DNA of 64,000 nt from Draconibacterium orientale (GCA_020726265.1 DYSZ01000002.1:1262-65261), one strand, 5' to 3'. Counted from the stretch's first letter, positions 30,842 through 57,173 are shown. Notes: generated from the letters alone by a model not told the origin. Translations and numbers: made by a program.

Positions 30842-30908
30842 TTTAATAATACGTTATTTTATTATAAATCTTTTTATTTTAAAGGTAATTTCTTTTTAGA
30901 AAGAATTG

Positions 30909-30916
30909 CAAATATA
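30909..30916 (-). promoter_or_regulatory. candidate -7 promoter box for mdh (TAtaTTTG on minus strand)
   Basis: caaatata on the + strand, about 68 nt upstream of the mdh ATG. Confidence 0.35.
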
Positions 30917-30987
30917 AATGATTTTACCAAAGTGAAAAATTTATAAAACAAGCAAAATCCGGGTTAACATCTTGGGAAAAGAGAAGA

Positions 30988-31020
30988 AGCCCCTCCCCTG
31001 CTCTCCCCAGGTGGAGGGGG
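30988..31020. repeat. GC-rich hairpin repeat, copy 4
   Basis: agcccctcccc-tg-ctctcccc-aggt-ggaggggg. Confidence 0.65.
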
Positions 31021-31143
31021 ATGGAAAACAGGAGTAAATTACGATTTACTGATTTACTATTTATGTGAATTAAGTGGAAAATCCGTATTTTCATTCTTTA
31101 ACTTATCCTGATTTTCAGACAGTTGCTTTTTTGATGTTTTTTT

Positions 31144-31305
31144 CCGCAGGTCGATGACCATGCGGTTTTGAAAATCTGACTTTTCAAGTCAGTTCTGCAA
31201 TTTGTCCTGAAAGGACTTATTTTCATAACCACAGGTTGTGACCTGTGGTTGTAGCATAATAGAACCAAACTGCCTGTAAGGCAGGATTTCTCGACAGAAT
31301 TGCAA
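31144..31305. repeat. cluster of five short tandem hairpins (REP-like array or structured RNA)
   Basis: ccgca..tgcgg; ctgact-tttca-agtcag; gtcc-tgaaa-ggac; aaccacagg-ttgtga-cctgtggtt; ctgcc-tgtaa-ggcag. A possible enclosing helix is tgcaatt..tgtc / gaca..aattgca. Confidence 0.45.
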
Positions 31306-31449
31306 TGAATAAAACCGTTCAATACAGGTTACTAACTCTTGATTCGCATTAATTGCCTTTTATTATGGAATCCAGAATCCGGGTTCCGAATCTCCAAAAA
31401 TTCCAATATCAAGTATCGGGAATCAAGAATCAAGTATCCGATTTCAATC

Positions 31450-33636
31450 TCAATTCAGCCAATAAGTAATTTTGAGTACAAGTGCACGATTACGGGAACT
31501 CCAGTCGCCGGTGAAATAATTGTCGGTGTACACAAGGTAGATATCCGAAACCGGTTGGTAACGCCACTGTAAACGCATGTTTATATTCATGTTTTCAATC
31601 TGTTCGTTGTATTGCACAAAGGTTGTCCAGAATATTTTGTCGGTAAAAGTTACATCGAGTTTAGGTCCGACAAGCAGGAATTTAGTACGCTCGAACGGAT
31701 CGCCCAAATCCATGTAGGTATAATTAAAATTCATTGTCAAATTTATGAAGGGTTGTATGCGGTAACCCACAATGCCATCAATGTACTGAATTTCACCAGT
31801 ATAATATGATCCTTTTGCCGCTTCAAACGAATAACTCAGCATATTTTTCCGGGTTGACATGTACGCAACAAAAGCACCACCAAAATCATACGATGAACCG
31901 GTTGGCAGATAACGATCGCCGCTGTGTGTTGGGTCGAAATCATCCTGCAATTCAACAAAAAAATCTTTGTATCCGAATTGGAGATGCGACATGTTTTGAA
32001 ATTCCAACTTATAAGAAAACGTGTTTTCGTGTTCAATTTTCCGGTAATCAGCATCAAAATAATTTTCATTTTCAACCGAAGGACCGTGACTGACAATCTG
32101 CCCGTTGGGAACAAAAAGGTAAGTAATTTCGGGCCCAAGAAAATTGTACCCTGTGCGGCGTACATAGCCTGTTTCGGCTAGGTAGTTTTGGCCAACCGAA
32201 GTCTGCGAAACCCTTGCCTGAATGTGTGTTGTGTTGTATGCAAGTGTTGCTCCCTGCGCGTATTGTTTATCAGGGTTTCCAGGCTGAAACGAGCGGTGGT
32301 AAAAAAACTTGCCACTCCAGAAATTATTGCCGGAAGCCAGGTTATAATCAAAACCAAAAACACGGTTAAACATGGTAGTATCAGCAGGCTGGTTGAAATA
32401 TTCCTTGTTCACAAATATGAACCCGAAATTGGAGCGTGCAAAAACCTTTTGCTGAACCGAGGCCACTGTAAAATTGCGTGCAAGAAAATCCCCGGTTTCG
32501 CGGGTTGTCATATTAATTAAACCAATACGGAGATTATTTCCGATTTTACCGGTAAGCCGGGCGCCAGCCAAAACTGGTGCATCGAGCCCGATGCGGCGAG
32601 AGAAAAACGGGGTAACCGACTCATAACCATAATTGGCAAATAAATCGCTGTTTTCGAGAAAAAACTGGCGCTTTTCAGGGAAAAGCAGCTCGAAGCGGTC
32701 GATGTTAGCAATTTGCCTGTCAACTTCAACCTGCGAAAAATCGGGGTTGTAGGTAAGGTCAAGATTAAGTGATGATGAAAGACCTACTTTGGCGTCGAAT
32801 CCAAAATCTTTGCGGTACTCAGCCCCGGTTCCAGCCTCATAATCGTTGGCATAACTCCCGAAGACATAAGGTATAAACGAAAGTTGCGTGCGGGGTTTTG
32901 GCAGTGGCTCGTCAAATTTCATCACTCCGGTATAAGCCAGCGAAGCCGTAGGGAATTGACGTGGCACAGATGCCCACGATGACTTTTCATTCGACTTTAA
33001 ATCCAAACGGCTGAAATTCACGTTCCACATTTTTGAATCGGCAGGGTAACGCACCGATTTAAATGGAATTCTTAATTCAGAAACCCATTTGTCGGCATAA
33101 TTTTTTGTTTTCGATTCCCATTTGATATCCCACATCAATGAAATTTTAACTCCACCGTTCGACATCAACCCGTCCCATTTGGCACCAGAGGCTGAAACGC
33201 CAAACGAAAATCCGTTTGTTTGGTCGAGAAACGTATCGAAGAAAATTAACAGGTTATCGTTGTTACTGAAAATAAAATCGGGGCGGAATGACTCCATGAT
33301 TCGTTTACCCGGAATTGAATCGTAAAAAACCTGGGCTACATACAAAGCTTTGTCGTCATAAGTCATCATTATCTCTGAAGGTTGCGCTGCAAATCCCGAA
33401 TCGATCGGCAAAACAAGGTTAAAATCGGTTGCCTTTTGAGCCACCTGCCAAGCTGCCTCATCAATAACTCCATCGATTTTAATATCCGAGTTCCGTTTTT
33501 TTACAACGTACACATAATCTTTGTTATGCGTTTCGATTACAGTGTCGTTTTTAAGGCTGAAAACTTCATTTGCGACAGCTGATGAAGCATTGAAAATCAA
33601 CATAATAATAAATATCCACGAAAAAGTTCTATTCAT
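31450..33636 (-). CDS. CBM9-like + DUF5916 outer-membrane-associated protein
   Basis: Signal peptide and IKIDGVIDEAAWQVAQKATDF (CBM9-like). 728 aa and beta-rich. Ends in an aromatic-rich beta-strand terminus. Confidence 0.65.
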   Translation of the reverse strand: MNRTFSWIFIIMLIFNASSAVANEVFSLKNDTVIETHNKDYVYVVKKRNSDIKIDGVIDEAAWQVAQKATDFNLVLPIDSGFAAQPSEIMMTYDDKALYVAQVFYDSIPGKRIMESFRPDFIFSNNDNLLIFFDTFLDQTNGFSFGVSASGAKWDGLMSNGGVKISLMWDIKWESKTKNYADKWVSELRIPFKSVRYPADSKMWNVNFSRLDLKSNEKSSWASVPRQFPTASLAYTGVMKFDEPLPKPRTQLSFIPYVFGSYANDYEAGTGAEYRKDFGFDAKVGLSSSLNLDLTYNPDFSQVEVDRQIANIDRFELLFPEKRQFFLENSDLFANYGYESVTPFFSRRIGLDAPVLAGARLTGKIGNNLRIGLINMTTRETGDFLARNFTVASVQQKVFARSNFGFIFVNKEYFNQPADTTMFNRVFGFDYNLASGNNFWSGKFFYHRSFQPGNPDKQYAQGATLAYNTTHIQARVSQTSVGQNYLAETGYVRRTGYNFLGPEITYLFVPNGQIVSHGPSVENENYFDADYRKIEHENTFSYKLEFQNMSHLQFGYKDFFVELQDDFDPTHSGDRYLPTGSSYDFGGAFVAYMSTRKNMLSYSFEAAKGSYYTGEIQYIDGIVGYRIQPFINLTMNFNYTYMDLGDPFERTKFLLVGPKLDVTFTDKIFWTTFVQYNEQIENMNINMRLQWRYQPVSDIYLVYTDNYFTGDWSSRNRALVLKITYWLN

Positions 33637-33907
33637 GTGGTTTAACCGATTTAGGTGAGGCGCAAATATATAGAATTTGTTGAAAACAAAAGCTGAATCA
33701 GGTTCATTCTCATTGGCATTTGAGTCACGCGAGGCAAAAAAATGGCTGAATTTTTCTGTGAAAACCTGTTCTGTATTATTTATTTTCAGCTTTTAGTAAC
33801 AGTAATCTTTATTTTTATCAGTAAAACAGATACAAAATATCGTTTTCAGTTTTAGATTTGTAGTTGAAAATTTCAAAATTAATTATTAACCTTTAAAATA
33901 GCGGGTT

Positions 33908-34009
33908 ATGTCAAAAGGAATGGATGTAAAAAAAGCGGCTAAAAAAGAACCACTAAAAACTGCCAAGGAAAAAAAAGCAGAGAAAAGAGAAAAGAAATCA
34001 AAATATTAG
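33908..34009 (+). CDS. candidate 33-aa lysine-rich small protein
   Basis: MSKGMDVKKAAKKEPLKTAKEKKAEKREKKSKY. Followed by the strong terminator at 34030-34073. Not in the ORF track because it is shorter than 60 aa. Confidence 0.3.
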   Translation: MSKGMDVKKAAKKEPLKTAKEKKAEKREKKSKY

Positions 34010-34029
34010 TGGTAGTAAAATCGCTGGGA

Positions 34030-34073
34030 ATACCCTTGCAGAAATCAGATAGATGGATGCAAGGGTATTTTTT
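34030..34073. terminator. rho-independent terminator
   Basis: atacccttgca-(17 nt)-tgcaagggtat-ttttt. Confidence 0.7.
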
Positions 34074-35466
34074 ATAATAATTTTTTTATCAGCTTGAAAT
34101 ATTTAAACGGCGCAAATTTAAACGGGAGGTCAATCCAGGTTGGGGTTGTTACAATTGCACGTTGATTGCTGAAAGCCAGGAAGCTGAATTTACCATGGTA
34201 CTTTCCAAGTCCGCTGTTGCCAACTCCACCGAATGGCAGGTTATGATTCACAAAATGCATCAGGGTATCGTTGATACAACCACCGCCCGAAGTTGTTGCT
34301 AAAATCATTTTTCTTGCTGATTTGTTTCTCCCGAAATAGTAAAATGCCAGCGGTTTTTCGTTACTATTTACATATAAAATTGCCTCGTCTGTTTCCCTGA
34401 AGGTGATAACAGGTAAAATTGGTCCAAAAATCTCTTCCTGCAAAATTGGATATTCTGGTTTGATTTCATCGATAATCGTAAAATCAATGAATTTTTGTGT
34501 ACGATCGGCTTTCCCACCAAAAATTATTTTACCGTGTTTCATCAGATTTTCAAGCCTGTCAAAAGTCTGTTCATTTACGATGTGAGGAAATATTGGGCTG
34601 TTTTCTCGGTCGATTCCATACATTTCATTCACATTATCACCAATCAATCTGAGCAATTCATCCTTTACTGATTCATGCACCAAAAGATAGTCGGGGGCAA
34701 TGCAAGTCTGACCCGCATTGATACATTTTCCAAAAGCAATTCGTCGGGCAGCTACCTTTATATCAGCATCCTTTTCAACAATACACGGGCTTTTCCCGCC
34801 GAGTTCAAGTACAACTGGGGTCAGAAATTCAGCAGCGGCTTTCATTACCACTTTTCCAACTTGCGGGCTGCCAGTGAAAAAAATAAAATCAAAACGCTGT
34901 TCCAGCAAAATCTCGTTCACTTTCCGGCTTCCCTGAACCATTGCGATGTATTTGGGCGCGAAAGTTTCAGCAATCATTTCTTCCATTGCCAGCGCAACAT
35001 TGGGTGTGTAAGGCGAAGGTTTCAGTATTGCAGTGCAACCCGAAGAAATAGCTCCGACAACTGCATTCATCAGCAACATAAACGGATAATTCCAAGGGGC
35101 CATTATCAAAGACACACCCAGTGGTTCAAAAAAGATATGGCTTGATGAAGGCTGCAAAACCAACGGAGTTCTGATTCGTTTTGATTTTGACCACTTTGTA
35201 ACGTTTTTAATGTGGTAATCAATTTCACCAAGAACGATTCCGATTTCGGTTAAATAAGTTTCTTCGTATGATTTGTGCAGGTCAGTCCAAAAGGCTCCTG
35301 CAATGCTTTTTTCGTGTTTGAGAATGGCAGTTTTAAACTTCTTCAGCATTTCAATCTTGAATCCGATATCCTTGGTTTTTCCGGAAGCAAAAAAAACACG
35401 CTGTTTTTCAATCAGTAACTCAATTGTAACCCTTGAAGTATCATTCATAAATTCATTTTTCAACAA
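34072..35466 (-). CDS. NAD(P)-dependent aldehyde dehydrogenase (class 3-like)
   Basis: ELGGKSPCIV and GQTCIAPDY (catalytic Cys). The start could be the M at 35448. Confidence 0.85.
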   Translation of the reverse strand: MLKNEFMNDTSRVTIELLIEKQRVFFASGKTKDIGFKIEMLKKFKTAILKHEKSIAGAFWTDLHKSYEETYLTEIGIVLGEIDYHIKNVTKWSKSKRIRTPLVLQPSSSHIFFEPLGVSLIMAPWNYPFMLLMNAVVGAISSGCTAILKPSPYTPNVALAMEEMIAETFAPKYIAMVQGSRKVNEILLEQRFDFIFFTGSPQVGKVVMKAAAEFLTPVVLELGGKSPCIVEKDADIKVAARRIAFGKCINAGQTCIAPDYLLVHESVKDELLRLIGDNVNEMYGIDRENSPIFPHIVNEQTFDRLENLMKHGKIIFGGKADRTQKFIDFTIIDEIKPEYPILQEEIFGPILPVITFRETDEAILYVNSNEKPLAFYYFGRNKSARKMILATTSGGGCINDTLMHFVNHNLPFGGVGNSGLGKYHGKFSFLAFSNQRAIVTTPTWIDLPFKFAPFKYFKLIKKLL

Positions 35467-35482
35467 TATTTAAAGTTGTTTA

Positions 35483-37723
35483 TCAGAACAGAAAACCAAT
35501 TTTTACGTGGTGGTAAAAAGCCCCTATTTCGGGGGAGTACATTACATTGTATTCCATTGGCATGGCACTCAGGTTGTAGGCCAATCCAAGTGAAAAACCA
35601 TTTATCCATTCCATTTTTTCGGTATCGAAAAATTTGTCGTCGGTCGTAAAACTATGGATGCCGGTATTGGCGCGGCCAATAAGCAGAAAGCTGCCCATAA
35701 AATTATATTGCAATCCAACCAAAGCGGATCCTATTGAAGAAGAGTTGATTTGGGTATCATTCAGTCCGACAAAGGTCATTTGGTTTGCTGTAACTTTCTG
35801 AATGCCACCAATTGTGAAATTATCAAAAATAAAGTTTTGGGAATTAAGCAGAAGTCCGGTTTGCAGATTGAAAAGAAGAACTGTTCCTTTGTTAAAGGAA
35901 TGATATTTATTAAAATTCAGCGCAAAGCGGTAAAAGGCAGGCTGCCCGTTAATCAGGTCAGAAACATCAGCAGTGGTTCTCTCTGAATTGTAAATCTCTA
36001 TTTTTGCTCTGCGGTGCCAGAGAAAACCAGCTTCGGCCCTGAATTCATGACCTTTTGTTGGATAAAACGGCCTGTCGATGGTGGTTGATTCGGTTTTTAA
36101 ATAGGTATGGTAATTTTTTGAATTGCCTTTAATTTTTAGGTTATCGGCTATACTTGGGTTGAATGAAACTTTTTGAAACATTGTGCCCACAGCAATCCGC
36201 CAGTCGTTTTCAAGTGTAATTGCATAATTCATATCAGCGGTTGTATTCAGCATGTTGTAAACCGATGTTTTTTCGCTTCCATCGTACATATTTAAAGGGA
36301 GGTTTTCGCTGATAAAGATTCCGTTGATATACTGGTTTCCTTTTTGGCCAAAAGCCTGGTTGTGTTCGAGTTGAATGCCCATGTATTCACCAACTCCGAC
36401 TTTAACGAAAGTACGCGATTTGTTGAGGAGCAAATTCCGGATTGTTGCATTTGCAATCAAAGCTGGTCCGGCATAAGAATGGTACAACAGTCCGGCTTTT
36501 ACCTGCGTCATTTGTGTTTCCTGAACAATACAATGCATTCGGGCGTGTCTGCGGGAGGTGGGGTATAAATGATAATATACTTTATCGTAATACCTGCTTG
36601 AATATGCCTTTCTGAACCCTTTGTTGATTTCTTCGGCTGTGTAGCTGTCACCGGTTTTAATTTGCAGTTTATCAAGTAGTTGATTTTGGCTTGTTTTGTC
36701 GAGTCCTTCGAAAGTAATTTCGTCAATAATTATCGACTCACGCTCAGGCAACCGATTGTCGGGATTGAATTTTACTTTTTCGATAGCGTTAAGTGAATCG
36801 GCTAGGTGTTTGAAATACGGATAATATTTTTTGCCTATTTCTTCCCCGATTTTCATAATCTCATCAACAGATACAAAACTACCGGCACTATAATTTTCAA
36901 CCGGAGGTTCGATAATAAGGTTACAAAGTTTTTTTTCCTTTACAAGATCCTCAGCATCGCGGTATTGTGTAATCTGGTAAAACACATCCAGAATGTTGTT
37001 TAGTTTCGAAACATCGGGTAATCCCAGAAAAAGATTCACGCCAATCACAATGTCGGCTCCCATTTTATTTACGTCTGTAACCGGAAAATTTCTGATAATT
37101 CCGCCATCAACAAGTTTTGTGGAGTCATAATCTATGGCTGTAAAAACACTCGGGATCGCCATGCTTGAACGAAGAGCAGTCACAATTTCGCCTTTGTCGA
37201 GAACAACAGCATTGCCATTGGATAAATCGGTGGCAATACATTTAAACGGGATATTGAACTTTGAAAAGTCTTTGACATTGTACACCGGCAAAAAAAGCTC
37301 GTTTAATTTCAGCCAGAGTTCCTCCGACTCAATCAAACCGGTAGCAATCTGAGGCTTCATATTTTTTAAACCTATTTCCACCGAGTATTTGCCATATTCA
37401 TCTTTTTCTTCGATTGCGATATCGCTATAACTGGGCTTGTTACTTAAAATAACATTCCAGTCGAGGTCGTTTGATATTATTTCAATTTCTTTTCCTGAAT
37501 ACCCAACGGCATAAAGTGCTCCAACAATACTGCCCATGCTGGTACCGGTAATGTAATCGATTTTTAATCCGGCACTGTCGATGGCCTGTAAAATGCCCAC
37601 ATGCGAAATGCCTTTTGCTCCACCACCACTAAGTACCAGACCAACCTGGGGGCGTTGAGCCTGGGTTGTGATGGCAGCAGTCAAAATAAAAACCATGAAA
37701 ATAAAGCTGGTTCGTTTTTCCAT
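35483..37723 (-). CDS. patatin-like phospholipase with C-terminal Omp85-like beta-barrel
   Basis: LVLSGGGAKG oxyanion motif, GTSMGS nucleophile, DGG. Long beta-rich C-terminal half ending in F. Confidence 0.8.
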   Translation of the reverse strand: MEKRTSFIFMVFILTAAITTQAQRPQVGLVLSGGGAKGISHVGILQAIDSAGLKIDYITGTSMGSIVGALYAVGYSGKEIEIISNDLDWNVILSNKPSYSDIAIEEKDEYGKYSVEIGLKNMKPQIATGLIESEELWLKLNELFLPVYNVKDFSKFNIPFKCIATDLSNGNAVVLDKGEIVTALRSSMAIPSVFTAIDYDSTKLVDGGIIRNFPVTDVNKMGADIVIGVNLFLGLPDVSKLNNILDVFYQITQYRDAEDLVKEKKLCNLIIEPPVENYSAGSFVSVDEIMKIGEEIGKKYYPYFKHLADSLNAIEKVKFNPDNRLPERESIIIDEITFEGLDKTSQNQLLDKLQIKTGDSYTAEEINKGFRKAYSSRYYDKVYYHLYPTSRRHARMHCIVQETQMTQVKAGLLYHSYAGPALIANATIRNLLLNKSRTFVKVGVGEYMGIQLEHNQAFGQKGNQYINGIFISENLPLNMYDGSEKTSVYNMLNTTADMNYAITLENDWRIAVGTMFQKVSFNPSIADNLKIKGNSKNYHTYLKTESTTIDRPFYPTKGHEFRAEAGFLWHRRAKIEIYNSERTTADVSDLINGQPAFYRFALNFNKYHSFNKGTVLLFNLQTGLLLNSQNFIFDNFTIGGIQKVTANQMTFVGLNDTQINSSSIGSALVGLQYNFMGSFLLIGRANTGIHSFTTDDKFFDTEKMEWINGFSLGLAYNLSAMPMEYNVMYSPEIGAFYHHVKIGFLF

Positions 37724-37973
37724 TTTTCTTCTACTGATTGGTTTTCAATGCCAAGATATTAAAATCTACGATTCAAAAATATGTTTTCCTCTGTTATGCC
37801 AGCCTGATTTTTTATTGCAGAATTTCTTTTCCGAAATTATCGATCAGGTTTTTTAATTGCTAAATGACAAGTAATTGAAAAGTAAGTTCATAATTCAATA
37901 AGAATGATTTGGATTTTATTTTAATTTTATAATGAATAGGTATATCAAAAATCTGAATCGAAACTAAAAACTT

Positions 37974-38882
37974 ATGAAAACTACACGAAGAGATTTTATC
38001 AGAACAGGTGCAGTTGCTGCGACTGGTATTTCATTGCTCGGGCATATTGCCTGTAACCCAATCGCTCCAGGTGCCAACTTTTTAACTGCGGTGCAATTGT
38101 ATTGTGTGCGCGTCGAAATGCAAGCCGATCCGCTTGGGTCGCTTACCAAACTGGCCAAAATGGGTTACACTCATGTAGAACATGCCAATTATGTCGATCA
38201 CAAATTTTATGGTTGGACGGCCGCAGAATTCAAAAAAGTACTTGGCGATTTGGGATTGAAAATGCCATCAGGGCATACAGTTCTGGGGAAAGACCACTGG
38301 GATGCTGCCGCCGGCGATTTTACCGCTGTATGGAAAAAAACAGTGGAAGACGCGGCGCTGCTGGAACAGCAGTTTGTGGTAAGTCCGTGGCTTGACGATA
38401 GCCTCAGACAAACCTATGACGATTTGTTGCGGTTTATGGAAGTGTTTAATAAATGCGGTGAGTTGTGTCAGAAATCGGGGATGCAATTTGGTTACCACAA
38501 CCACGATTTTGAATTTAGTGCTACACTGAATGGCGAAAAAGTTTTCGATCTGATGATGAAAAATACAGATGCCGATAAAGTGGTGATGCAGCTCGATATG
38601 GGAAACATGTACATTGCCGGTGCACTTGCTAAAGATGTAATTGCCCAATATCCGGGCCGTTATGGAACAATTCATGTCAAAGACATGATAAAAACAAGCG
38701 AAGGCGAAGGTTTTGAAAGCACAATACTGGGCAGTGGGCTCGTTGGCTCGAAAGAAGTTACTGACCTTGCCAAAGCTTTGGGGACAAAACTCTTTGTGAT
38801 TGAACAGGAATCGTACCAGGGTAAAACTCCGATGGAATGCATGGAAGAAGATTTAAAAGTGATGAAATCGTGGGGATATTAA
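37974..38882 (+). CDS. sugar phosphate isomerase/epimerase (xylose isomerase-like TIM barrel) with Tat signal
   Basis: MKTTRRDFIRTGAVAATG twin-arginine signal. 302 aa. Confidence 0.7.
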   Translation: MKTTRRDFIRTGAVAATGISLLGHIACNPIAPGANFLTAVQLYCVRVEMQADPLGSLTKLAKMGYTHVEHANYVDHKFYGWTAAEFKKVLGDLGLKMPSGHTVLGKDHWDAAAGDFTAVWKKTVEDAALLEQQFVVSPWLDDSLRQTYDDLLRFMEVFNKCGELCQKSGMQFGYHNHDFEFSATLNGEKVFDLMMKNTDADKVVMQLDMGNMYIAGALAKDVIAQYPGRYGTIHVKDMIKTSEGEGFESTILGSGLVGSKEVTDLAKALGTKLFVIEQESYQGKTPMECMEEDLKVMKSWGY

Positions 38883-38895
38883 TCCGATGACAGCT

Positions 38896-38931
38896 AAAAA
38901 AAGGTTGAAATTTTGAATTTCAGCCTCTTTT
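38896..38931. terminator. bidirectional terminator
   Basis: aaaaaaa-ggttgaaa-ttttga-atttcagcc-tcttttt. Confidence 0.55.
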
Positions 38932-38941
38932 TGTTAGCTGG

Positions 38942-39151
38942 CTACCCCAGATACTTAAACGAAACTTTCAGTTTTACACGGTAAAACTCAATTTTGCCGT
39001 CTTTGATGTGCATGTCCATCTTTTTAACTTCGGCAATTCTCATTTCCCGCAGCGATTTCGCGGCTGCGGCAATGGCGTTTTGAGCAGCTTTTTCCCACGA
39101 TTCGGAGCTGCTACCCACCAATTCGATAATTTTGTAAACACTGTCGGGCAT
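38942..39151 (-). CDS. dodecin-family flavin-binding protein
   Basis: 69 aa. VYKIIELVGSSSESWEKAAQNAI...RIAEV is typical of dodecin. Confidence 0.8.
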   Translation of the reverse strand: MPDSVYKIIELVGSSSESWEKAAQNAIAAAAKSLREMRIAEVKKMDMHIKDGKIEFYRVKLKVSFKYLG

Positions 39152-39317
39152 AAATTTAAAATTTAAGGTGAACTTTTAAAAACTTATTTCACTTCGGTCT
39201 TATTTCAAAAGCTGTCCTTTTTTACGTTCATTTTTTTGTATGGTTTGCTGATTTACAAGTGAAGAATTATTAATGTATTTTAGGCACATCATAAAAATGA
39301 TAAACGACATTAGATTG

Positions 39318-40430
39318 TTATTTCTTGTAAACCCAGAGTTTCCAATCCGGGTTTTCGTGCATTCTACGGTTTAGTTCGGTAAACGCTTCTTCTTCTGTAT
39401 TATACGATGCGATGCCGACAAGAAAAATTTTGCCTTTCTGCCCGAGCAAACTTCCTTCGATTCCCTTGTTTTTTAGCTGGGCAATGAATTTCAGCGCATT
39501 TTCCTCGCTTTTAAAACTCCCACCTACCAGGAAATATTTTTGTGTTGATATGGATGACTGTGTTTGTGAAACTTCCACAGCCACAGTATCAGTCGGTTGA
39601 ATTGCGCCAGGGTTAATAACTTCTGGCTGAATTAATTCTGTTTTGATTTCGACAGATGGTGTGTCTTTAGGAGTCTTCTTCATGTTTTCAAAAATGAGGA
39701 AAGAAACCACAAAAATGGCAATCACCAGCAGAAATATCCATAACCATGTTCTGCTTTTTTTCGTTTCTTTTTTTAATTCGGCCACTTCAGTCTTTGGTTC
39801 AACAACTGTTGTTTTGGCGCTGTTGGGTTCAGTAATTATGGGTTTCCCAACGGGTTCTTCATGCAGAACAGAAACAGGGGGTTCCTCAGGTTGCACTTCA
39901 TTTACAATTTCAATTGCAGGTTTTGCCATTACTTCAGGTTCGTTTTCAATCTGAGTTTCTTCTTGTTCATTTAGGTCTTCAAACGAAAGTGGCTCAAAAC
40001 CAGCACCCTGAACAAACTGATTTTTATGGTACGAAATGAATGTAATTTCGTGGTTTTCGTTGTAAGAAAATTCTCCCAGGTCTCCAAAAATCACTGTTTC
40101 ACCTTTGTCGAGCTGGTACAGAATTTTTGTAACAGCCCTTTCAATTTTTTTGAAAGCATCATCGTAACTTACTTTTTTCGATCGGGCAATGTGCATGGCA
40201 AGCATCCCATCGTTGTTTTTCACCTGGTGAAAAAAGCGAACCTCCTTTCCCGGAGGAAGAATTTCCTTTTCTCTGATCACTGCTGGTTTGTACACCAAAA
40301 CAAAAGCGCCAAAATCAGGCACGATAACGGTTTGGTTATCAGATAATAATGCTGTAATAAAAATTGAAAGATCCACTTTTTGTTTTTTTTTGATTTGCTG
40401 TAAAAGTAGAAAAACATCGTGTTTTGGCAT
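39318..40430 (-). CDS. HU-like (HU-CCDC81) + SPOR domain protein
   Basis: N-terminal VIVPDFGAFV motif, central TM segment, C-terminal SPOR-like YFLVGGSFKSEENALKF... Confidence 0.65.
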   Translation of the reverse strand: MPKHDVFLLLQQIKKKQKVDLSIFITALLSDNQTVIVPDFGAFVLVYKPAVIREKEILPPGKEVRFFHQVKNNDGMLAMHIARSKKVSYDDAFKKIERAVTKILYQLDKGETVIFGDLGEFSYNENHEITFISYHKNQFVQGAGFEPLSFEDLNEQEETQIENEPEVMAKPAIEIVNEVQPEEPPVSVLHEEPVGKPIITEPNSAKTTVVEPKTEVAELKKETKKSRTWLWIFLLVIAIFVVSFLIFENMKKTPKDTPSVEIKTELIQPEVINPGAIQPTDTVAVEVSQTQSSISTQKYFLVGGSFKSEENALKFIAQLKNKGIEGSLLGQKGKIFLVGIASYNTEEEAFTELNRRMHENPDWKLWVYKK

Positions 40431-40528
40431 TATTAAAATACAATAACTTCATCGAAAACAATAATACAACATGGAAGTGTCAGGTTAATTTTAATTACTT
40501 TTACAATTCAGTAAAAATTGATTATACA

Positions 40529-41557
40529 ATGGCAAAAAAAATTTTGGTTACAGGTGGTACAGGTTACATCGGGTCACATACCGTGGTCGAGTTGCAGCAA
40601 TTTGGATTTGAGGTAATTGTGGTTGACAATCTTTCTAATTCAGGAATTGAAGTATTGGAGAATATCGAAAGAATTACCGGATTAAAACCGGCCTTCGAAG
40701 AGTTTGATCTGGCAGACAGGATATTGACCGATGATTTTTTTGCAAGAAACAATGACATCGATGCCATTATTCATTTTGCAGCTTTTAAAGCAGTTGGCGA
40801 ATCGGTGCAAAAACCACTGAATTATTACCGGAACAACTTGGTTTCGCTGATGAATATACTTGAAAATCAGATCAGGTTTGGTATTTCAAACCTGGTATTT
40901 TCGTCGTCGTGTACAGTTTACGGGCAACCCGATGTTCTGCCGGTAACCGAACAAACACCCCGAAAAGATGCCGAGTCGCCATATGGAAATACAAAACGCA
41001 TCAGCGAGGATATTTTACGCGAAACAATTGCTGTAAATCCGCAAATTAAAGGAATTGCATTGCGCTACTTTAATCCGGTTGGAGCACATTCTTCGGCGCT
41101 GATTGGCGAATTGCCACTGGGTGTTCCGCAAAATCTTGTGCCGTTTATTACACAAACTGCTGCCGGATTGCGCAACGAATTAAAGGTTTTCGGAAATGAT
41201 TACAACACCCCCGATGGTTCGGCTGTGCGCGATTATATTAATGTGGTTGACCTGGCCAAAGCCCATGTTATTGCAATTGAGCGATTGCTGAAAGCGAAAA
41301 ATAAATCCAACTACGAAGTGTTTAATCTGGGTACCGGAACCGGACTTTCAGTTCTTGAAGTGGTCACGGGTTTTGAAAGGGCTACTGGTGTTAAACTGAA
41401 CTATGAAATTGTTGACCGACGCGCCGGCGATGTAGAAAAAATTTGGGCCGATACTTCCTTTGCCAACGAAGAACTGGGCTGGAAAGCAGAAAAAGGACTG
41501 GATGAAACATTGCTTTCGGCCTGGAGTTGGGAAAAGAGAGTCAGGGGAATTAAATAA
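40529..41557 (+). CDS. galE: UDP-glucose 4-epimerase
   Basis: Start moved to MAKKILVTGGTGYIGSH. YGNTK active-site motif. Confidence 0.9.
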   Translation: MAKKILVTGGTGYIGSHTVVELQQFGFEVIVVDNLSNSGIEVLENIERITGLKPAFEEFDLADRILTDDFFARNNDIDAIIHFAAFKAVGESVQKPLNYYRNNLVSLMNILENQIRFGISNLVFSSSCTVYGQPDVLPVTEQTPRKDAESPYGNTKRISEDILRETIAVNPQIKGIALRYFNPVGAHSSALIGELPLGVPQNLVPFITQTAAGLRNELKVFGNDYNTPDGSAVRDYINVVDLAKAHVIAIERLLKAKNKSNYEVFNLGTGTGLSVLEVVTGFERATGVKLNYEIVDRRAGDVEKIWADTSFANEELGWKAEKGLDETLLSAWSWEKRVRGIK

Positions 41558-41564
41558 GTAAAAT

Positions 41565-42617
41565 ATGAAAACTATTCTCATTACCGGCGGTGCCGGATTT
41601 ATCGGTTCGCATGTGGTGCGGCTGTTTGTGAATAAATATCCTGATTATAAAATTGTTAACCTCGATAAACTGACTTATGCGGGAAATTTGAACAACTTAA
41701 ACGATGTTGAAAATAAGGCCAATTATGAGTTTGTAAAAGGTGATATCGTTGACGGAGAATTTATTCAGCGGCTGTTTACTGAAAAACAGTTCGACGGGGT
41801 TGTCCATCTTGCTGCCGAATCGCACGTTGACCGCTCAATTTCGAACCCCACTGAGTTTGTTTTTACCAATGTGATTGGTACTGTGAACCTGCTGAATGCT
41901 GCCAAAACCATCTGGAAGGATAATTTCGAAGGGAAAAAGTTCTACCATATTTCAACCGATGAGGTATATGGCTCGCTGGGCGATGAGGGTATGTTTACCG
42001 AAGAAACAAAATATGACCCGCACAGTCCGTATTCAGCATCAAAAGCCAGTTCCGACCATTTTGTACGTGCATATCTCGATACTTTTGGTGTGCCATCGGT
42101 GATTTCAAACTGCTCAAACAATTACGGATCGTTTCAGTTTCCCGAAAAACTGATCCCGCTTTTTATTCATAACATCAAAAATAACATGCCGTTGCCTGTT
42201 TACGGGAAAGGCGAAAACGTGCGCGACTGGCTTTGGGTAGTCGATCATGCACGCGCTATTGATGTGATTTTTCATCGAGGCAAAGTTGGCGAAACTTACA
42301 ACATTGGCGGTTTTAACGAGTGGACAAACATCGACCTGATAAAACTGATGTGCCGCAAAATGGACGAAAAACTGGGCCGTCAGGCAGGAGAATCAGAAAA
42401 GCTTATAAACCATGTGAAAGACCGCGCCGGACACGATTTGCGTTACGCTATTGATGCCACAAAAATAAAAAGGGAACTGGGTTGGGAGCCTTCACTGCAA
42501 TTTGAGGAAGGCATTGAAAAAACCATCGATTGGTACCTCGAAAACGAAGCCTGGCTCAACAATGTAACCTCGGGCGATTACCAGAAATATTACGAACAGC
42601 AGTATGTAAAACGGTAG
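41565..42617 (+). CDS. rfbB: dTDP-glucose 4,6-dehydratase
   Basis: ILITGGAGFIGSH, YSASKASSDH, and 350 aa. Confidence 0.9.
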   Translation: MKTILITGGAGFIGSHVVRLFVNKYPDYKIVNLDKLTYAGNLNNLNDVENKANYEFVKGDIVDGEFIQRLFTEKQFDGVVHLAAESHVDRSISNPTEFVFTNVIGTVNLLNAAKTIWKDNFEGKKFYHISTDEVYGSLGDEGMFTEETKYDPHSPYSASKASSDHFVRAYLDTFGVPSVISNCSNNYGSFQFPEKLIPLFIHNIKNNMPLPVYGKGENVRDWLWVVDHARAIDVIFHRGKVGETYNIGGFNEWTNIDLIKLMCRKMDEKLGRQAGESEKLINHVKDRAGHDLRYAIDATKIKRELGWEPSLQFEEGIEKTIDWYLENEAWLNNVTSGDYQKYYEQQYVKR

Positions 42618-42618
42618 A

Positions 42619-42662
42619 AAGCCTGTCAACCTCTCCCCGGTCCTCTCCAGGGGAGAGAGAGA
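42619..42662. repeat. GC-rich hairpin repeat, copy 5
   Basis: agcctgtcaacctctcccc-gg-tcctctcc-agg-ggagagag. Immediately after the rfbB stop. Confidence 0.65.
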
Positions 42663-42690
42663 TAGAAAAATTTAAGCTCAATCCCTTGGA

Positions 42691-43461
42691 TCATTTCACG
42701 CGAATAAAAGGTTCACCTTCGGAGGAAGGAATGTATTGCTGAATTGCCTTTTCCCATATCAAATATCCTTGACCATTTAGGTGTAGTCCATCATTCGACA
42801 GAGATTTGTTTAACACATTAAAATCTGTTTTCAATAAATCAAAAAGATTAATGAATGTAAGATTGTATTTCTGAGCTAATGATTCTAATCCACTATTAAT
42901 TAAAACTATATCCGTATTTTGTAAATTTGCTCGATTATCTGTTGGTAGAATACTTTGAATAAATAGATTTGTTTCTAGTGATTTTTCAATTATAAGTTCA
43001 ATAAGCTTTTTATAATCTGATAAAATTTGCTCAACCTTTCTTCTTCTTGACAAATCGTTTATTCCAATCATTAGAAAAATCTTACTCGGCTTTGATTCGG
43101 TTACTTCGTCTAATCTATCAATAACACCATTGATTACATCACCACCAATCCCTCTATTTTTAATATTTTGTTTTCCAAAGAGTTCATTCCAATCACAATA
43201 GTCTGTAATACTGTTTCCCAAAAATATGATTTCCGCTGAGTCATTGGGCATAATTTCGAAAATGCTTTTTTTAGCATAGTAATAAGTACCATAATCTTTA
43301 ACCGGCAGCGTATTTGATTGGATATTAAATTTGAGTTTTAAATAATTTAAACCGCCTTTTTTATGAATTACATAGAAAATAAACAAAATAAAACTGAAAT
43401 TGAAAATTAATGAGATTGTAAAGATTCTTTTCATTTGTGTTGATTTTATATTAGTTGTCAT
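42691..43461 (-). CDS. SGNH/GDSL-family hydrolase
   Basis: FLGNSITD (block I), GINDL and DGLHLN (block V). Visibly AT-richer than its neighbours. Confidence 0.75.
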   Translation of the reverse strand: MTTNIKSTQMKRIFTISLIFNFSFILFIFYVIHKKGGLNYLKLKFNIQSNTLPVKDYGTYYYAKKSIFEIMPNDSAEIIFLGNSITDYCDWNELFGKQNIKNRGIGGDVINGVIDRLDEVTESKPSKIFLMIGINDLSRRRKVEQILSDYKKLIELIIEKSLETNLFIQSILPTDNRANLQNTDIVLINSGLESLAQKYNLTFINLFDLLKTDFNVLNKSLSNDGLHLNGQGYLIWEKAIQQYIPSSEGEPFIRVK

Positions 43462-43519
43462 ATATGATAACCGAAGGGCGGATATAAAACAAAATCTTAG
43501 TTGTCGTGAATGACAACTG

Positions 43520-43738
43520 ATGAAAAAGGAGGAACTTCAAAAAATTATTGGTAATCGTATCAAGCTTTTAAGAGAGTCTAAGGGAATCTCACAACAAGTT
43601 TTAGCTGCGATGTGCAATTTTGAGAAGGGAAATATGTCAAGAATTGAAGCAAGAAGAGCGAATCCGACTCTTACAACTTTATATAAAATCAGTCAGTCCT
43701 TAGGAATAAAAGTTACAGACATTGTAGATTTTGAATAA
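43520..43738 (+). CDS. XRE-family helix-turn-helix transcriptional regulator
   Basis: 72 aa. IKLLRESKGISQQVLAAMCNFEKGNMSRIE is the Cro/C1 HTH pattern. Confidence 0.8.
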   Translation: MKKEELQKIIGNRIKLLRESKGISQQVLAAMCNFEKGNMSRIEARRANPTLTTLYKISQSLGIKVTDIVDFE

Positions 43739-43810
43739 TTGAATTACTCTCACAACTAAGTTTACATTTCAAAATAATCAGCCAAAAATTTCTCAAACAG
43801 TTTTTTATTC

Positions 43811-43818
43811 TATCTTTG
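43811..43818 (+). promoter_or_regulatory. candidate -7 promoter box for rpsP (TAtcTTTG)
   Basis: TAnnTTTG 23 nt upstream of the ATG at 43842. Confidence 0.45.
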
Positions 43819-43841
43819 CGCCACATTTTTAAAAAATAAGT

Positions 43842-44390
43842 ATGTCAGTAAAAATGAGACTAGCGCGGCATGGCCGCAAACGTTATGCCTACTACCACAT
43901 TGTGGTGGCAGATAGCAGGGCGCCACGAGATGGCAGGTATATTGAATTAATAGGAACGTACAATCCGAATTCAAATCCTGCTACTATAAATCTCGATTTT
44001 GACAAAGCTTACGATTGGCTTACAAAAGGCGCACAACCAACCGACACTGTACGTGCAATTTTGTCGTACAAAGGTGTGCTCTACAAAAAACACCTCATGG
44101 GTGGTGTGAAAAAAGGTGCATTCGATGCAGTTGAAGCTGAAAAACGCCTCGACGCATGGATGACAGAAAAAGATGCCAAAATTCAGGCAAAAATCGACCG
44201 TTTAGCTGTTGACGCTGATAAAGAAGTAAAACAACAGCTGGCTGCCGAAGTAAAAGTGAAGGAACAAAAAGCTGTTGCTATTGCTGCTAAAAATGCAGAA
44301 TTGGCTGCCGAAGCCAGAGCAGCAAAAGAAGCTGAAGCACAGGCTGAAACACCTGCCGAAGCTCCGGAAACAGAAGGTGCTGAATCTTAA
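43842..44390 (+). CDS. rpsP: 30S ribosomal protein S16 with Ala/Glu/Lys-rich C-terminal extension
   Basis: [41 protein letters not shown]. Confidence 0.9.
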
Positions 44391-44412
44391 TCAGAAATCA
44401 TCATCTCGAAAT

Positions 44413-44447
44413 AAAACCATTCATCGTTACGTTGAGTGGTTTTTTTT
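44413..44447 (+). terminator. rpsP rho-independent terminator
   Basis: aaccattca-(9 nt)-tgagtggtt followed by a T7 run. Confidence 0.75.
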
Positions 44448-44450
44448 ATT

Positions 44451-44950
44451 GTGCGCCGTACATGCTTATCATTTTGAAGGAGTAATTCCTTTATGGGGGT
44501 CGGGTAGTTCAACCATTAGCCAAGAGCAAGGGTGTGCATTGTGAGGTGGAATCTGAAGGATGCTGGCGGCAAAGTACTGAACCGTGGAACACGAACCACC
44601 TCAGGCATTTCCAACCGGACGGGTTTGCAATACAAAACGAAGTACAACAACTACCCGGAGGTTGAGGGTGTAAACAGATATGGAAACAATGGAAAAATAT
44701 CAAGACGAAACGTCGAACCCTTATAAACCTTGGCATTCCAAAACAAAAAGCTTGGGAATATGCAAATACAAGGAAAGGTTTCTGGCGCACAGCCCAAAGC
44801 CCAATACTGCAAGTAGGCATATCCGATGACCGGTTACGTCAATGGGGTTACGTCTTTTGCTCGGATTGCTATAAAACTGTTCATCGTGTACAATAAAGAA
44901 CCGCCGTGTACCGAACGGTACGCACGGTGGTGTGAGAGGTCGGAACATGA
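44451..44950 (+). ncRNA. ORF-less group II intron ribozyme, class C (IIC)-like; 3' boundary uncertain (44945-44995)
   Basis: Starts GTGCG 3 nt after the terminator T-run. The domain V-like hairpin at 44899-44932 (aaccgccgtgtacc-gaac-ggtacgcacggtggtg) has a CGC triad, a G.U wobble and a 2-nt CG bulge. No RT-sized ORF is present. Internal stretches (ggaatctgaagga..cggcaaa, ggaacacgaac, tttgcaatacaaaac) match my recollection of the Oceanobacillus iheyensis IIC intron. Confidence 0.75.
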
Positions 44951-45053
44951 AATAGGAGAAAAACCTATTTTATTTTCCTCTTGCTCGATTGTAATTTTGT
45001 GAGGTTTAAATGTTCAGTTTTAGTCTGAACTTCAGTGATGACCGAAATGTTTT

Positions 45054-45061
45054 TATATTTG
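45054..45061 (+). promoter_or_regulatory. candidate -7 promoter box (TAtaTTTG)
   Basis: 18 nt upstream of the ATG at 45080. Confidence 0.4.
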
Positions 45062-53974: not shown

Positions 53975-56900
53975 CTATTTCAACCCCGCAATCCGCTCTT
54001 CAATCACTTTTATCTTTGCTTCTGCGTCGGCTTGTTTGGCGCGTTCGGTGGCAACAACGGCTGCAGGTGCGCTACTGACAAAACGTTCGTTACTGAGTTT
54101 TTTCATAACTGAGTCCAAAAATCCTCGGGTGTATTTTAATTCTTCTTCAAGCTTTTTCACTTCTTCCTCAACATCGATAAAACTACCCAGCGGAACAAAG
54201 AAGTTGGTCGATTTTACAAGGAACGAAGCTGCGCCTTTTACCTCTTCTGTCACCATTTCGAGCGACGAAAGATTGCCCATTTTTATCACCACACTGTTAA
54301 ACTGTGCTTCAAAACCTTTGTCACCCTGCTGAACTTTCAGTTCCAGCGTTTCCTTTTGAGCAATGTTTTTGTCTGTGCGGATTTTGCGGATTCCCGAAAT
54401 GGCTTCCTTTACATTTTCAAAGGAAGCAATTAATTCAGTATCATATTTTTCAGCTTTTGGCATTTGGCAAATCATAATACTTTCACCAGCCTTTCTTTCA
54501 GTTAACATCTGCCAGATTTCCTCGGTGATAAACGGCATAAACGGGTGCATCAGCCGCAACATCTGGTCGAAAAGTTCAACCAGCTCGTTGTATGTTTTTG
54601 TATCAATTGGCTGCTGATAGGCGGGTTTTACAACTTCGAGTAACCACCCTGAAAATTCGTCGCGAACAGTGGTGTAAACAGTCATCAACGCTTCAGAAAT
54701 ACGGAATTGTGTAAACTGTTCATCAAGTGTAGTAATCACTTCGCCCAACTTATTTTTGAACCATTCGATGGCTAATTTTGAGTGTTCAGGTTGTTCGAAA
54801 TTTGAATCTACTTCCCAGTTTTTTACAAGCCGGAAAGCATTCCAGATTTTTGTGGCAAACCCTGAACCCTGCTGCGGCAGACTTTCGTCGAACAACAAAT
54901 CGCCACCGGCAGGTGAACAAAGCAACATTCCCACACGGACACCGTCGGCGCCGTATTTTTCAATCAGGTCGAGCGGGTCGGGGGAGTTGCCAAGTGATTT
55001 CGACATTTTACGTCTCTGTGCATCGCGCACCATTCCTGTGAAATAGACGTTTTTGTAGGGCAGTTCATTCCTGTATTCATACCCTGCAATAATCATTCTC
55101 GCCACCCAAAAAAAGATGATGTCGGGTGCTGTCACCAAATCAGTAGTGGGGTAGTAGTATTTTATTTCGTCGTTATCGGGTTTACGGATTCCGTCGAAAA
55201 CTGAAATCGGCCACAGCCAGCTTGAAAACCAGGTGTCAAGCGCATCTTCATCCTGTTTAAGGGAAAAGCCTTCCCCATCCCCTCCGAGGGAGGGGTGTTT
55301 TGCTATTACCAATTTTCGAGCCTCTTCTTCATTTTCAGCAACCACAAATCCGTAGTTCTTTTCTCCCTCTCCTTTGGAGAGGGCCGGGGAGAGGCTTTCA
55401 ATATACCAAACCGGAATCTGGTGGCCCCACCACAACTGGCGGCTGATGCACCAGTCTTTTACGTTGCTCATCCAGTGGTTGTAAATATTTTTGAATTTGG
55501 GCGGATGAAATTTGATGGTGTCATTCATCACATTTTCAAGGGCTGGTTTCACCAGTTCTTCCATTTTCAGAAACCACTGTGCCGAAAGTTTGGGTTCAAT
55601 CGGAATATGAGTTCTTTCAGAGTACCCAACTTTGTTGTTGTAGTCTTCAATTTTGGCAATGTTCCCCGCTTTTTCAAGTTCGGGAATGATTTCGTCACGT
55701 ACATCAAACCGGTCTTTTCCAATAAAAAGACCGGCTTTTTCGCTGAGAGTTCCGTCGTCGTTAAAAATATCGATTGAAGGGAGGTTGTGCCGCATCCCTA
55801 TTTCATAATCGTTAATGTCGTGTGCCGGCGTAATTTTCAGACAGCCGGTTCCAAATTCCATATCCACATAATCGTCTTCAATAATTGGAATTGAACGATT
55901 AATGAGTGGAACCAGAACTCTTTTTCCGACAAGATGTTTGAAGCGAGGGTCAGCAGGATTTACACAAACCGCAGTATCTCCTAAAATCGTTTCCGGACGC
56001 GTGGTTGCTATCGTAACAAAAGCCCCCTCCAACTCCCTCGAAGGGGGAGAGTTTAGAGCATCTTCGATGGATTGTAATACTGCTTCAATATTGCCAATTA
56101 CTTCTTCATTCGTAAAACGCAAAATCCGGTAACCTAATTCAGTTAGAATATCAGTTTTGATTTTGTCTAATTCCTGAATTTCAGGTTGATTGTGATAGCC
56201 ACCATCAACTTCTATAACAAGGCTTTTAGAAAGGCAAACAAAATCTACAATAATATCATTGATAATGTGTTGTCGTCTGAACTTTTCCCCCAATTTATTA
56301 GAACGAAGCATTTCCCACAAAACATTTTCAGCCTCTGTTGAAAAACGACGTAATTCTTTTGCATTCTTTTTTAATAACTCATACTCCGTTTTTCGCGCTG
56401 TCTTGTATTGTGGGTTTAGTTTCCCCCCCACGGGGGGATTAAGGGGGGCTTCTATTTTATATTTCAGATAATACAATTTTGATTGAACTTCCCGGTAAAT
56501 CACCTCTTCATCCGACAAAGCAGTTTTGGCAGCCGGGTCCCAATTTACCATTCGTACGCCTCGGTAAACAAGTCCTTTGTTGTACAAATCAACAAAAACT
56601 TTAATAACCGATTCGCTGCGCGGTTCGTCCATGGTGAAGGCGGTTCTGTCCCAATCGCACGAAGCACCCAGTTTTTTAAGCTGTTCGAGAATAATTCCAC
56701 CATGTTTGTCGGTCCAGTCCCATGCATGTTTCAGAAATTCTTCCCTCGAAAGGTCGTATTTATCAATTCCGGCTTTACGGAGTTTATCAACTACTTTGGC
56801 CTCAGTAGCAATCGAAGCGTGGTCGGTTCCCGGAACCCAGCAGGCATTTTTGCCTGTCATTCGGGCGCGGCGTACAAGAATGTCCTGAATGGTATTGTTG

Positions 56901-57064
56901 AGCATGTGCCCCATGTGTAAAACACCAGTTACATTGGGTGGCGGAATTACGATGGTATAAGGTTCACGTTCGTCGGGTACCGAATGGAAAAATTTGTTGT
57001 CCATCCAGTATTTATACCATTTATTTTCAACCGCAGCGGGATTGTACTTGCTCGCAATTTCCAT
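53975..57064 (-). CDS. valS: valine--tRNA ligase carrying four in-frame repeat insertions and an embedded DUF559 endonuclease module
   Basis: Start moved to [24 protein letters not shown] and KMSKS motifs, [11 protein letters not shown] and ISRQLWWGH. 1029 aa against roughly 870-880 aa as I recall for Bacteroidota ValS. Confidence 0.9.
55266..55300. repeat. GC-rich hairpin repeat, copy 8 (in frame in valS)
   Basis: agccttcccc-at-cccctcc-gag-ggagggg. Translated on the minus strand as [11 protein letters not shown]. Confidence 0.7.
55361..55398. repeat. GC-rich hairpin repeat, copy 9 (in frame in valS)
   Basis: ccctctcc-ttt-ggagaggg-cc-ggggagaggct. Translated on the minus strand as [13 protein letters not shown]. 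Confidence 0.75.
56019..56452 (-). mobile_element. in-frame insertion in valS: DUF559/Vsr-like endonuclease module bracketed by inverted hairpin repeats (copies 10 and 11)
   Basis: Left hairpin, 56019-56056: agccccctcc-aa-ctccctc-gaa-gggggag. Right hairpin, 56415-56452: tccccccc-ac-gggggga-tt-aaggggggct. The interior encodes ...[85 protein letters not shown]. Confidence 0.75.
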
Positions 57065-57173
57065 AAAACTGTTTGTAAAAATTGAGGTGCAAATGTACAA
57101 GGAAAAGTTCAGAGTTTAAAGTTTTAAGTTTGTCCATTTAAAGTTTGCAGGATGAATGAGGAGGTAATTTTAA

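Follow-up and report, generated by a model that had tools for sequence, protein, structure and literature searches.

An element of 539 nucleotides located immediately downstream of rpsP is, with a probability that we place at about nine in ten, an inactivated and internally deleted copy of a group IIC intron that encoded a reverse transcriptase (RT). It resides in the window, by which we mean the whole stretch of 64,000 nucleotides that was analysed. A sequence-only reading had announced an ORF-less group IIC ribozyme at this site. This headline does not hold, because about 1370 nucleotides of the ribozyme core and the open reading frame (ORF) are deleted and the branch-site adenosine is changed to guanosine. 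The same reading had offered two alternatives, namely that the copy depends on a protein supplied in trans or that it is a fossil. The fossil is upheld and the trans-dependent copy is not, since the ribozyme core is incomplete. The features discussed below are as follows, with the evidence for each in brackets.

43842-44390, plus strand: rpsP, encoding ribosomal protein S16 (182 amino acids), the 5' exon context (ORF; PF00886 on the identical protein in nine public contigs; homologues)
44413-44450, plus strand: intrinsic terminator of rpsP, an A-run/hairpin followed by T8 and ATT (sequence, RNAfold, relatives)
44447-44450, plus strand: IBS1, UAUU (the last four exon nucleotides, TATT)
44451-44989, plus strand: whole intron relic, 539 nucleotides, from GTGCG to CTCGAT (BLAST against full-length metagenomic relatives; alignments A1 and A2)
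44451-44674, plus strand: domain I fragment, the 5' ~2/3 to 5/6 of domain I, including the RF02001 match and the EBS1 loop (profile, Rfam, RNAalifold)
44628-44631, plus strand: EBS1 (AAUA) in the domain I loop GCAAUACAAAAC (pairs with IBS1 at 4/4 positions)
44666-44896, plus strand: open frame lacking a start codon, 76 codons followed by TAA, also the former 3' side of domain IV (translation, tblastn, homologues)
44672-44678, plus strand: internal deletion junction, ~1370 nucleotides missing (ends of homology, profile, motif search)
44900-44931, plus strand: domain V, intact (sequence, Rfam, 30-mer)
44934-44986, plus strand: domain VI, a helix of ~22 bp with its distal hairpin and U-run at ~44950-44977 (alignment A1, fold)
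44990, plus strand: first nucleotide of the 3' exon (T), presumed IBS3 (base following CTCGAT)
29683-29716, minus strand: second intron fragment, 5'-truncated, the last 33 nucleotides of domain VI plus the +1 T (repeat match; full-length references align to the very last nucleotide)

Locus, boundaries and insertion site

There are 12 public contigs that encode an identical S16 protein, and the nine that were retrieved derive from Prolixibacteraceae-like metagenome-assembled genomes (MAGs) and bog-lake metagenomes. All nine carry the element, always at the same rpsP locus. The interval from rpsP to the SBF transporter gene is 99.3-100% identical on eight of them over the length that each contig covers, and the ninth contig ends just inside the element. 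Thus, the element is real and is fixed in the species, as represented by these nine contigs. An exact empty site was sought among them, and every retrieved contig with the identical rpsP has the element. The nearest relatives, whose S16 protein is 93% identical, exhibit the order rpsP-terminator-rimM with no insert, such that the terminator is shared but the 3' flank is not.

Further upstream, a GDSL-lipase gene (minus strand) and a small HTH_3 gene (plus strand) occupy positions 42691-43738, between the second epimerase gene and rpsP. In relatives the epimerase gene is followed directly by rpsP, and this block is therefore an insertion specific to the lineage of the window.

The GTGCG that had been noticed three nucleotides past the T-run of the rpsP terminator is present at 44451-44455, and the other terminus is a ...CTCGAT that ends at 44989. 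Both fit the 5' GUGYG and 3' AY ends expected from the GU-AY rule for group II introns (PMC4424553). The 3' end, which is uncertain by ±1 nucleotide, was placed where conservation stops in 105 distinct flanks, the 3' region having been aligned with relatives L139, L032 and L109 and then with 120 metagenome loci that share the lineage-specific 3' strand of domain VI. Across the lineage, the conserved 3' end reads ...CCUC(C)U(A)CUCGAU. The base that follows CTCGAT is T in 95 of the 105 distinct flanks, so it is not invariant, and subsequent positions vary.

The hairpin behind rpsP is the native terminator of this gene. It extends from 44413 to 44443 with a GC-containing core stem at 44417-44439, and is followed by T8 (44440-44447) and then ATT. 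These features directly precede the 5' end of the element, in agreement with the proposal that an intron had docked behind the rpsP terminator. RNAfold predicts -11.8 kcal/mol for the hairpin (44410-44450). In relatives that lack the element, a stronger hairpin with a T-run (-18 to -21 kcal/mol) is found in the same place, and this shared position identifies the terminator as native. A terminator scan gave no call here, as the hairpin of rpsP contains an internal mismatch; we nevertheless accept it as a terminator because of its conservation in relatives and its folding energy.

Insertion at terminators is the signature of class C introns (PMC4424553). The element combines such a location with a short IBS1-EBS1 pairing of the 3-4 nucleotides typical of this class, and thus occupies a cognate class C target. 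EBS1 is formed by the four bases that follow TTGC in the domain I loop. Across 33 distinct copies of the lineage, EBS1 and IBS1 pair at a mean of 3.36 of the four positions, which indicates that the loop and the 5' flank covary; 1000 shuffles of the partners give a mean of 2.46 ± 0.12 and a maximum of 2.94. The 5' flanks examined in the 33 distinct copies are all terminator-like, mostly a hairpin plus T-run, and two of them lie behind another intron copy.

At two metagenome loci, L214 and L249, intron copies stand in tandem, one starting right behind the 3' end (...CUCGAU(U)) of the other. With its long domain VI hairpin and U-run, this lineage apparently offers later insertions a target that resembles a terminator.

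Group II identity and the missing core

Domain V had been predicted some 450 nucleotides downstream of GTGCG, and it is located 448 nucleotides further on. Its lower helix is formed by 44900-44908 and 44923-44931. The CGC triad at 44902-44904, the G44903-U44928 pair, the CG bulge of the 3' strand (44921-44922), the 4-bp upper helix and the GAAC loop (44913-44916) are all present as described from the sequence. A 30-mer from this hairpin occurs once in the window and not at all in 100 shuffles. When made degenerate at two positions, the 30-mer is found in more than 120 genome stretches, mostly class C introns of Bacillota, among the matches listed. Where the full 5' part of such copies is recoverable, domain I lies ~1.8 kb upstream of domain V in almost all of them, and these copies are therefore RT-encoding. 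This search is too generic, and many of its loci are cut at contig ends, but it still yielded four complete relatives.

The hairpin was also likened to domain V of the Oceanobacillus iheyensis IIC intron, from which it would differ at two positions. This likeness is plausible because the two differences form one compensated base pair. There are no Oceanobacillus records among the 120 matches listed for the 30-mer, and a full-text search for the sequence returned nothing.

The recommended cmscan check gave group II matches, one above its cut-off and one just below. RF02001 (group-II-D1D4-3) scores 72.1 bits at 44535-44699 (cut-off 32, E 2e-12), and it is the sole Rfam match at gathering thresholds in the 64-kb window. 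RF00029 (D5-D6) reaches 38.3 bits at 44899-44973 in a permissive scan (local E 8e-6), which is 1.7 bits short of its cut-off of 40. It falls under the gathering score because the long domain VI is misaligned, and the Rfam alignment of D6 stops too early, at 44973, because of the domain VI extension of this lineage. With a domain V that has both the CGC triad and the 2-nucleotide bulge characteristic of class C, and with these two covariance-model matches, the proposed group IIC origin is well founded. A positive cmscan match cannot separate complete from broken copies, because the complete relatives obtain 138-158 bits from RF02001 versus 72 here.

The ~220 nucleotides that separate domain V from the domain I fragment are a remnant of a protein gene and not a set of RNA domains. 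The last ~68 codons of its open frame (44678-44881) correspond to residues 401-468 of a 472-amino acid relative protein that has RVT_1 and GIIM domains (66% identity, E 6e-24, tblastn), and the stop codon is located 3 nucleotides before domain V, as in relatives. Homologues of the remnant (P0121-P0127) are maturase fragments, one of which (P0121, 76% identical) is apparently a frameshifted full-length protein. A Pfam search with the 76-amino acid remnant alone gave no match, and the remnant was assigned by its homologues and by tblastn. The element was correctly said to carry no RT ORF: where a mobile intron has an RT/maturase ORF in domain IV, there is only this start-less C-terminal remnant. 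No other RT-like sequence was found in the 64-kb window. The predicted ORFs of 30-103 amino acids within the element (four on the plus strand, the rest on the minus strand) all lie outside the frame of the intron protein, and a gene is called there in none of the nine public contigs, which agrees with their earlier dismissal as spurious.

Because the frame matches the protein from 44678 onwards, the deletion spans from approximately nucleotide 224 of domain I to approximately codon 400. BLAST comparison with full-length environmental relatives (1906-1958 nucleotides) resolves the element into nucleotides 1-223 and ~1595-1906 (the last ~312 nucleotides) of a relative of 1906 nucleotides, and identity to the two closest full-length relatives, L223 and L245, is 80-82% and 76-77%. 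Domain I homology stops at 44674 and ORF homology begins at 44677-44678; the 25-mer of the junction reads GTGTAAACAGATATGGAAACAATGG. The tetranucleotide TGAT is located on both sides of the junction, and the deletion may have arisen at this microhomology. In agreement with these limits, an nhmmer profile of nucleotides 1-250 from 14 full-length relatives matches 44451-44674 (E 8e-41), and the profile of nucleotides 250-410 has no match in the 64-kb window (best E 0.38, off-locus).

The missing ~1370 nucleotides comprise the 3' strands of domain I, domain II (DII), the J2/3 linker, domain III (DIII), DIVa and ~400 RT codons. In alignment A2, ~190 nucleotides conserved in four full-length relatives are absent past the break point of the window. 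They constitute the closing strands of domain I, DII, the GAGAAGUCAGCAGA..CAUAGUA block of J2/3-DIII, and DIII. The J2/3-DIII motif is present in six relatives and has no match in the 64-kb window with up to three mismatches. When the consensus pairs derived by RNAalifold from 40 full-length copies are mapped onto the window, 37 of the 69 domain I pairs keep both partners (35 of these are canonical), 32 are left without their 3' partner, and 19 of 19 pairs of DII/DIII are lost. RF01998, which covers DII-DIII in two complete ORF-less relatives, has no match in the window. For the 539 nucleotides, the minimum-free-energy structure reaches a z-score of only -1.96, and no alternative closure of domain I was found in it.

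The ribozyme is built on domain I as its scaffold, and its catalytic triple helix consists of J2/3 and domain V (PMC4424553). Here the scaffold is not closed by its 3' strands, and DII, DIII and the J2/3 linker are not found. No consistent six-domain fold can accommodate domain V, since the 3' strands of domain I, DII, DIII and J2/3 are absent from the window, and this is an outcome that the sequence-only reading had itself named as counting against its proposal. Because these parts are lost, the RNA should be unable to form a group II active site. In model introns, D1 and D5 alone can support weak hydrolysis. Unlike that case, D1 of the element in the window is itself incomplete.

One possibility is that the element is nevertheless a functional ORF-less IIC ribozyme, either spliced or mobilised by an intron-encoded protein (IEP) acting in trans or operating as a HYER-like hydrolytic endonuclease. 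It has the right 5' GUGCG, a perfect domain V, a cognate EBS1-IBS1 pairing, a 3' GAU end and a terminator site. Moreover, passages of PMC11754743 and PMC12990946 describe DNA-cleaving ORF-less class C ribozymes (HYERs), and complete ORF-less copies of 668-676 nucleotides are found in the same lineage. We consider a working ribozyme highly improbable, because the element lacks the 3' third of domain I along with DII, DIII, J2/3 and DIVa, scores half as much on RF02001 as the complete copies do and has no RF01998 match. Furthermore, the complete copies L208 and L253 illustrate that a working derivative of this lineage retains nucleotides 1-579 plus the last ~100, a set that the element does not have, its branch-site adenosine is a guanosine, and otherwise conserved positions are polymorphic within the species.

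Another possibility is that the element is one piece of a fragmented group II intron that assembles as in trans-splicing, with the missing 3' part of domain I, DII and DIII supplied from elsewhere. Bipartite and tripartite group II introns do exist in organelles (PMC4424553), but here the two retained parts adjoin each other in a single transcript, coding exons that could be joined are lacking, and the junction lies inside a protein ORF, as is usual for a deletion. The missing segment has no match in the 64 kb, and the branch site is mutated. Such an assembly is the least credible of the explanations that we weighed and is almost certainly incorrect.

Decay, relatives and a possible rearrangement

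The second hairpin and T-run (44951-44977) had been assigned either to domain VI or to a replacement terminator. It lies inside domain VI, of whose lineage-conserved extension it forms the distal part. The bulged branch site of domain VI is G at 44983, and 44981 is T (U); these positions are A and C, respectively, in 68 of 68 distinct lineage sequences, which were collected with a search pattern that also permitted T and G at 44981 and 44983. Domain VI thus has no bulged branch-site adenosine, and an A to C change at 44946 breaks one of its pairs. The domain I fragment exhibits 12 deviations at 128 columns that are at least 90% conserved (junction excluded), where full-length copies have a mean of 2.9 and a maximum of 12. 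Strain L007 differs from the window at five sites. At three of them (44486, 44536 and 44622) it has the consensus base and the window does not, and at 44536 the base of the window disrupts a helix pair. In strain L002, one nucleotide is deleted at 44653. As far as these sequence comparisons go, the pattern fits neutral drift.

These observations suggest the following history for an inactivated copy. Its footprint suggests that a full-length intron of ~1.9 kb retrohomed just downstream of the rpsP intrinsic terminator, and it would have been targeted in the class C manner by the terminator hairpin, the 4-nucleotide IBS1 (UAUU with EBS1 AAUA) and a 1-nucleotide IBS3. A single deletion of ~1.37 kb, which the alignment shows, afterwards fused domain I at nucleotide ~224 to IEP codon ~400, removing the domain I-closing 3' strands, DII, DIII, J2/3, the protein-binding site DIVa and the RT. 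From this anatomy, the RNA could not fold into a group II active site, and presumably neither splicing nor reverse splicing would occur, even with protein in trans. Neutral drift since then would account for the change of the branch-site A to G, the broken pairs in domains VI and I, and the differences among strains at conserved positions. The relic probably persists because an intergenic position behind a terminator makes it harmless. The frame of 76 codons has stayed open and domain V has no defect, which may mean that the deletion occurred rather recently or that some parts of the relic are still under constraint.

Perhaps the relic has been co-opted by its host, for example with the domain VI hairpin and U-run serving as a spare terminator or insulating the SBF gene from rpsP. 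A 10-bp domain VI hairpin is indeed followed by UUUUAUUUU, the insertion of a second copy behind domain VI in L214 and L249 implies that this hairpin resembles a terminator to the intron machinery, and the element is fixed in the species, being carried by all nine contigs. Yet the domain VI stem is AU-rich with two GC pairs at its top, the terminator scan is negative there, and the hairpin is inherited from the intron lineage and did not evolve at the rpsP locus. In addition, rpsP has its own terminator, and a neutral relic is equally expected to be fixed within one species. A role for the host is therefore improbable.

Among the 120 metagenome loci there are many full-length copies, complete ORF-less derivatives, internal deletions and many 5'-truncated stubs. 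The complete ORF-less copies are L208, L253 and L258 (676 nucleotides) and L232 (668 nucleotides). They retain nucleotides 1-579 plus the last ~100, and those of 676 nucleotides include D1 to DIII, a short domain IV, domain V and a domain VI with the branch-site A. L208 (ends at 5672) and L253 (ends at 2801) are 99.4% identical, are located behind two different terminators on one 96-kb fermentation-metagenome contig, and also match RF01998 over DII-DIII. Because they are nearly identical behind two terminators, they resemble, to judge from sequence comparison, a HYER-like element that is mobilised but not autonomous.

Other internal-deletion copies that lack DII/DIII measure 215-337 nucleotides. 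The 5'-truncated stubs of 29-45 nucleotides include L141, L160, L170, L205, L216 and L233, and longer 5'-truncated copies of 243-790 nucleotides occur at L159, L220, L237 and L240. In 5'-truncated copies the truncation point varies and the 3' end is intact, a pattern that is expected of aborted reverse transcription or later deletion. In bacteria, truncated or inactivated copies make up the majority of group II introns, and copies without an ORF are rare (PMC4424553).

Two other short class C copies measure 285 nucleotides (L020, Lachnospiraceae MAG) and 598 nucleotides (L104, saline MAG) from the 5' end to domain V. They show that deletion derivatives are common in genomes among unrelated class C lineages.

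The window contains a second fragment of the intron in the form of a 34-nucleotide inverted repeat, wherein 44957-44990 (plus strand) matches 29716-29683 (minus strand) at 32 of 34 positions. This fragment has the consensus branch-site A and is located 133 nucleotides upstream of rimM (29024-29551, minus strand), which here is ~15 kb from rpsP and on the opposite strand. Three relatives have rpsP and rimM adjacent, and flipping 29717-44956 would restore the order rpsP-terminator-intron-rimM. This restoration suggests that the relic and the stub are the two ends of an inversion of ~15 kb, formed by recombination between inverted intron copies, a proposal that is rather doubtful but that we retain tentatively. 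A simple inversion was rejected as an explanation of the SBF side, where relatives have SecDF, not mdh, upstream of SBF; at least one more rearrangement is therefore needed. The 35 nucleotides at 44990-45024, between the intron 3' end and the homology with relatives upstream of SBF, have no recognisable origin. A conserved promoter-like element, TAnnTTTG at 45054-45061, belongs to the SBF transporter gene itself, as recognised by inspection.

An ORF of 1041 amino acids was considered as SecDF and proved to be valyl-tRNA synthetase instead; SecDF is not in the window. A full DUF559 domain (Vsr-like endonuclease) interrupts this valyl-tRNA synthetase ORF (53975-57100, minus strand) at residues 243-349. 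The insertion falls inside the catalytic tRNA-synt_1 domain, which is unusual for an essential gene.

Significance and comparison with known systems

The biological weight of the element is small, as it is one more inactivated group II copy and affects no gene. Its practical lesson is that a working ORF-less ribozyme is not established by a start of GUGYG together with a textbook domain V and Rfam matches. HYERs are now mined as programmable nucleases, and candidates need to be checked for domain I closure and for DII, DIII and J2/3; the complete ORF-less copies of 668-676 nucleotides are a useful positive control for such mining. The lineage survey records every stage of decay in one environmental class C lineage. 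For genome evolution, it is of small interest that intron remnants may be linked to an inversion that split rpsP from rimM. If the inversion is true, dead class C copies would have broken a conserved ribosomal-protein/rimM operon and reshaped the chromosome.

The RT-encoding class C introns located behind intrinsic terminators, such as B.h.I1 (Bacillus halodurans) and O.i.I1 (Oceanobacillus iheyensis), are the first group with which the relic can be compared. Over the parts that the relic retains, identity to their environmental full-length representatives L223 and L245 is 77-82%. It shares with RT-encoding IIC introns the 5' GUGCG, domain I including the EBS1 loop, the CGC-triad domain V with its 2-nucleotide bulge, the extended domain VI, the 3' GAU, the 4-nucleotide IBS1 site and the C-terminus of the RT/maturase. 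It differs from them in that the middle ~1370 nucleotides are gone, the branch-site A is G, and several conserved positions are mutated.

According to passages of PMC11754743 and PMC12990946, which draw on Liu et al. (Science 2024), HYERs are active ORF-less class C ribozymes. The relic resembles HYERs and ORF-less class C introns in its class C origin, the lack of an IEP, a size in the range of ~0.5-0.7 kb and a position behind a terminator. However, those elements keep a complete ribozyme core, with D1 to DIII and domain V intact, whereas the relic has neither an IEP nor a complete core, and it is known from a single locus.

The closest likeness is to the truncated or inactivated group II copies of bacteria (PMC4424553). 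The relic shares with them an internal deletion, an intergenic location, the lack of an effect on host genes and signs of neutral decay, and the 5'-truncated stub at 29683-29716 is likewise typical of such copies. There is no essential difference between the relic and these copies, and its host is a freshwater Prolixibacteraceae-like member of the Bacteroidota. Thus, the relic is a fresh example of a well-known kind, an ordinary dead copy of a retroelement.
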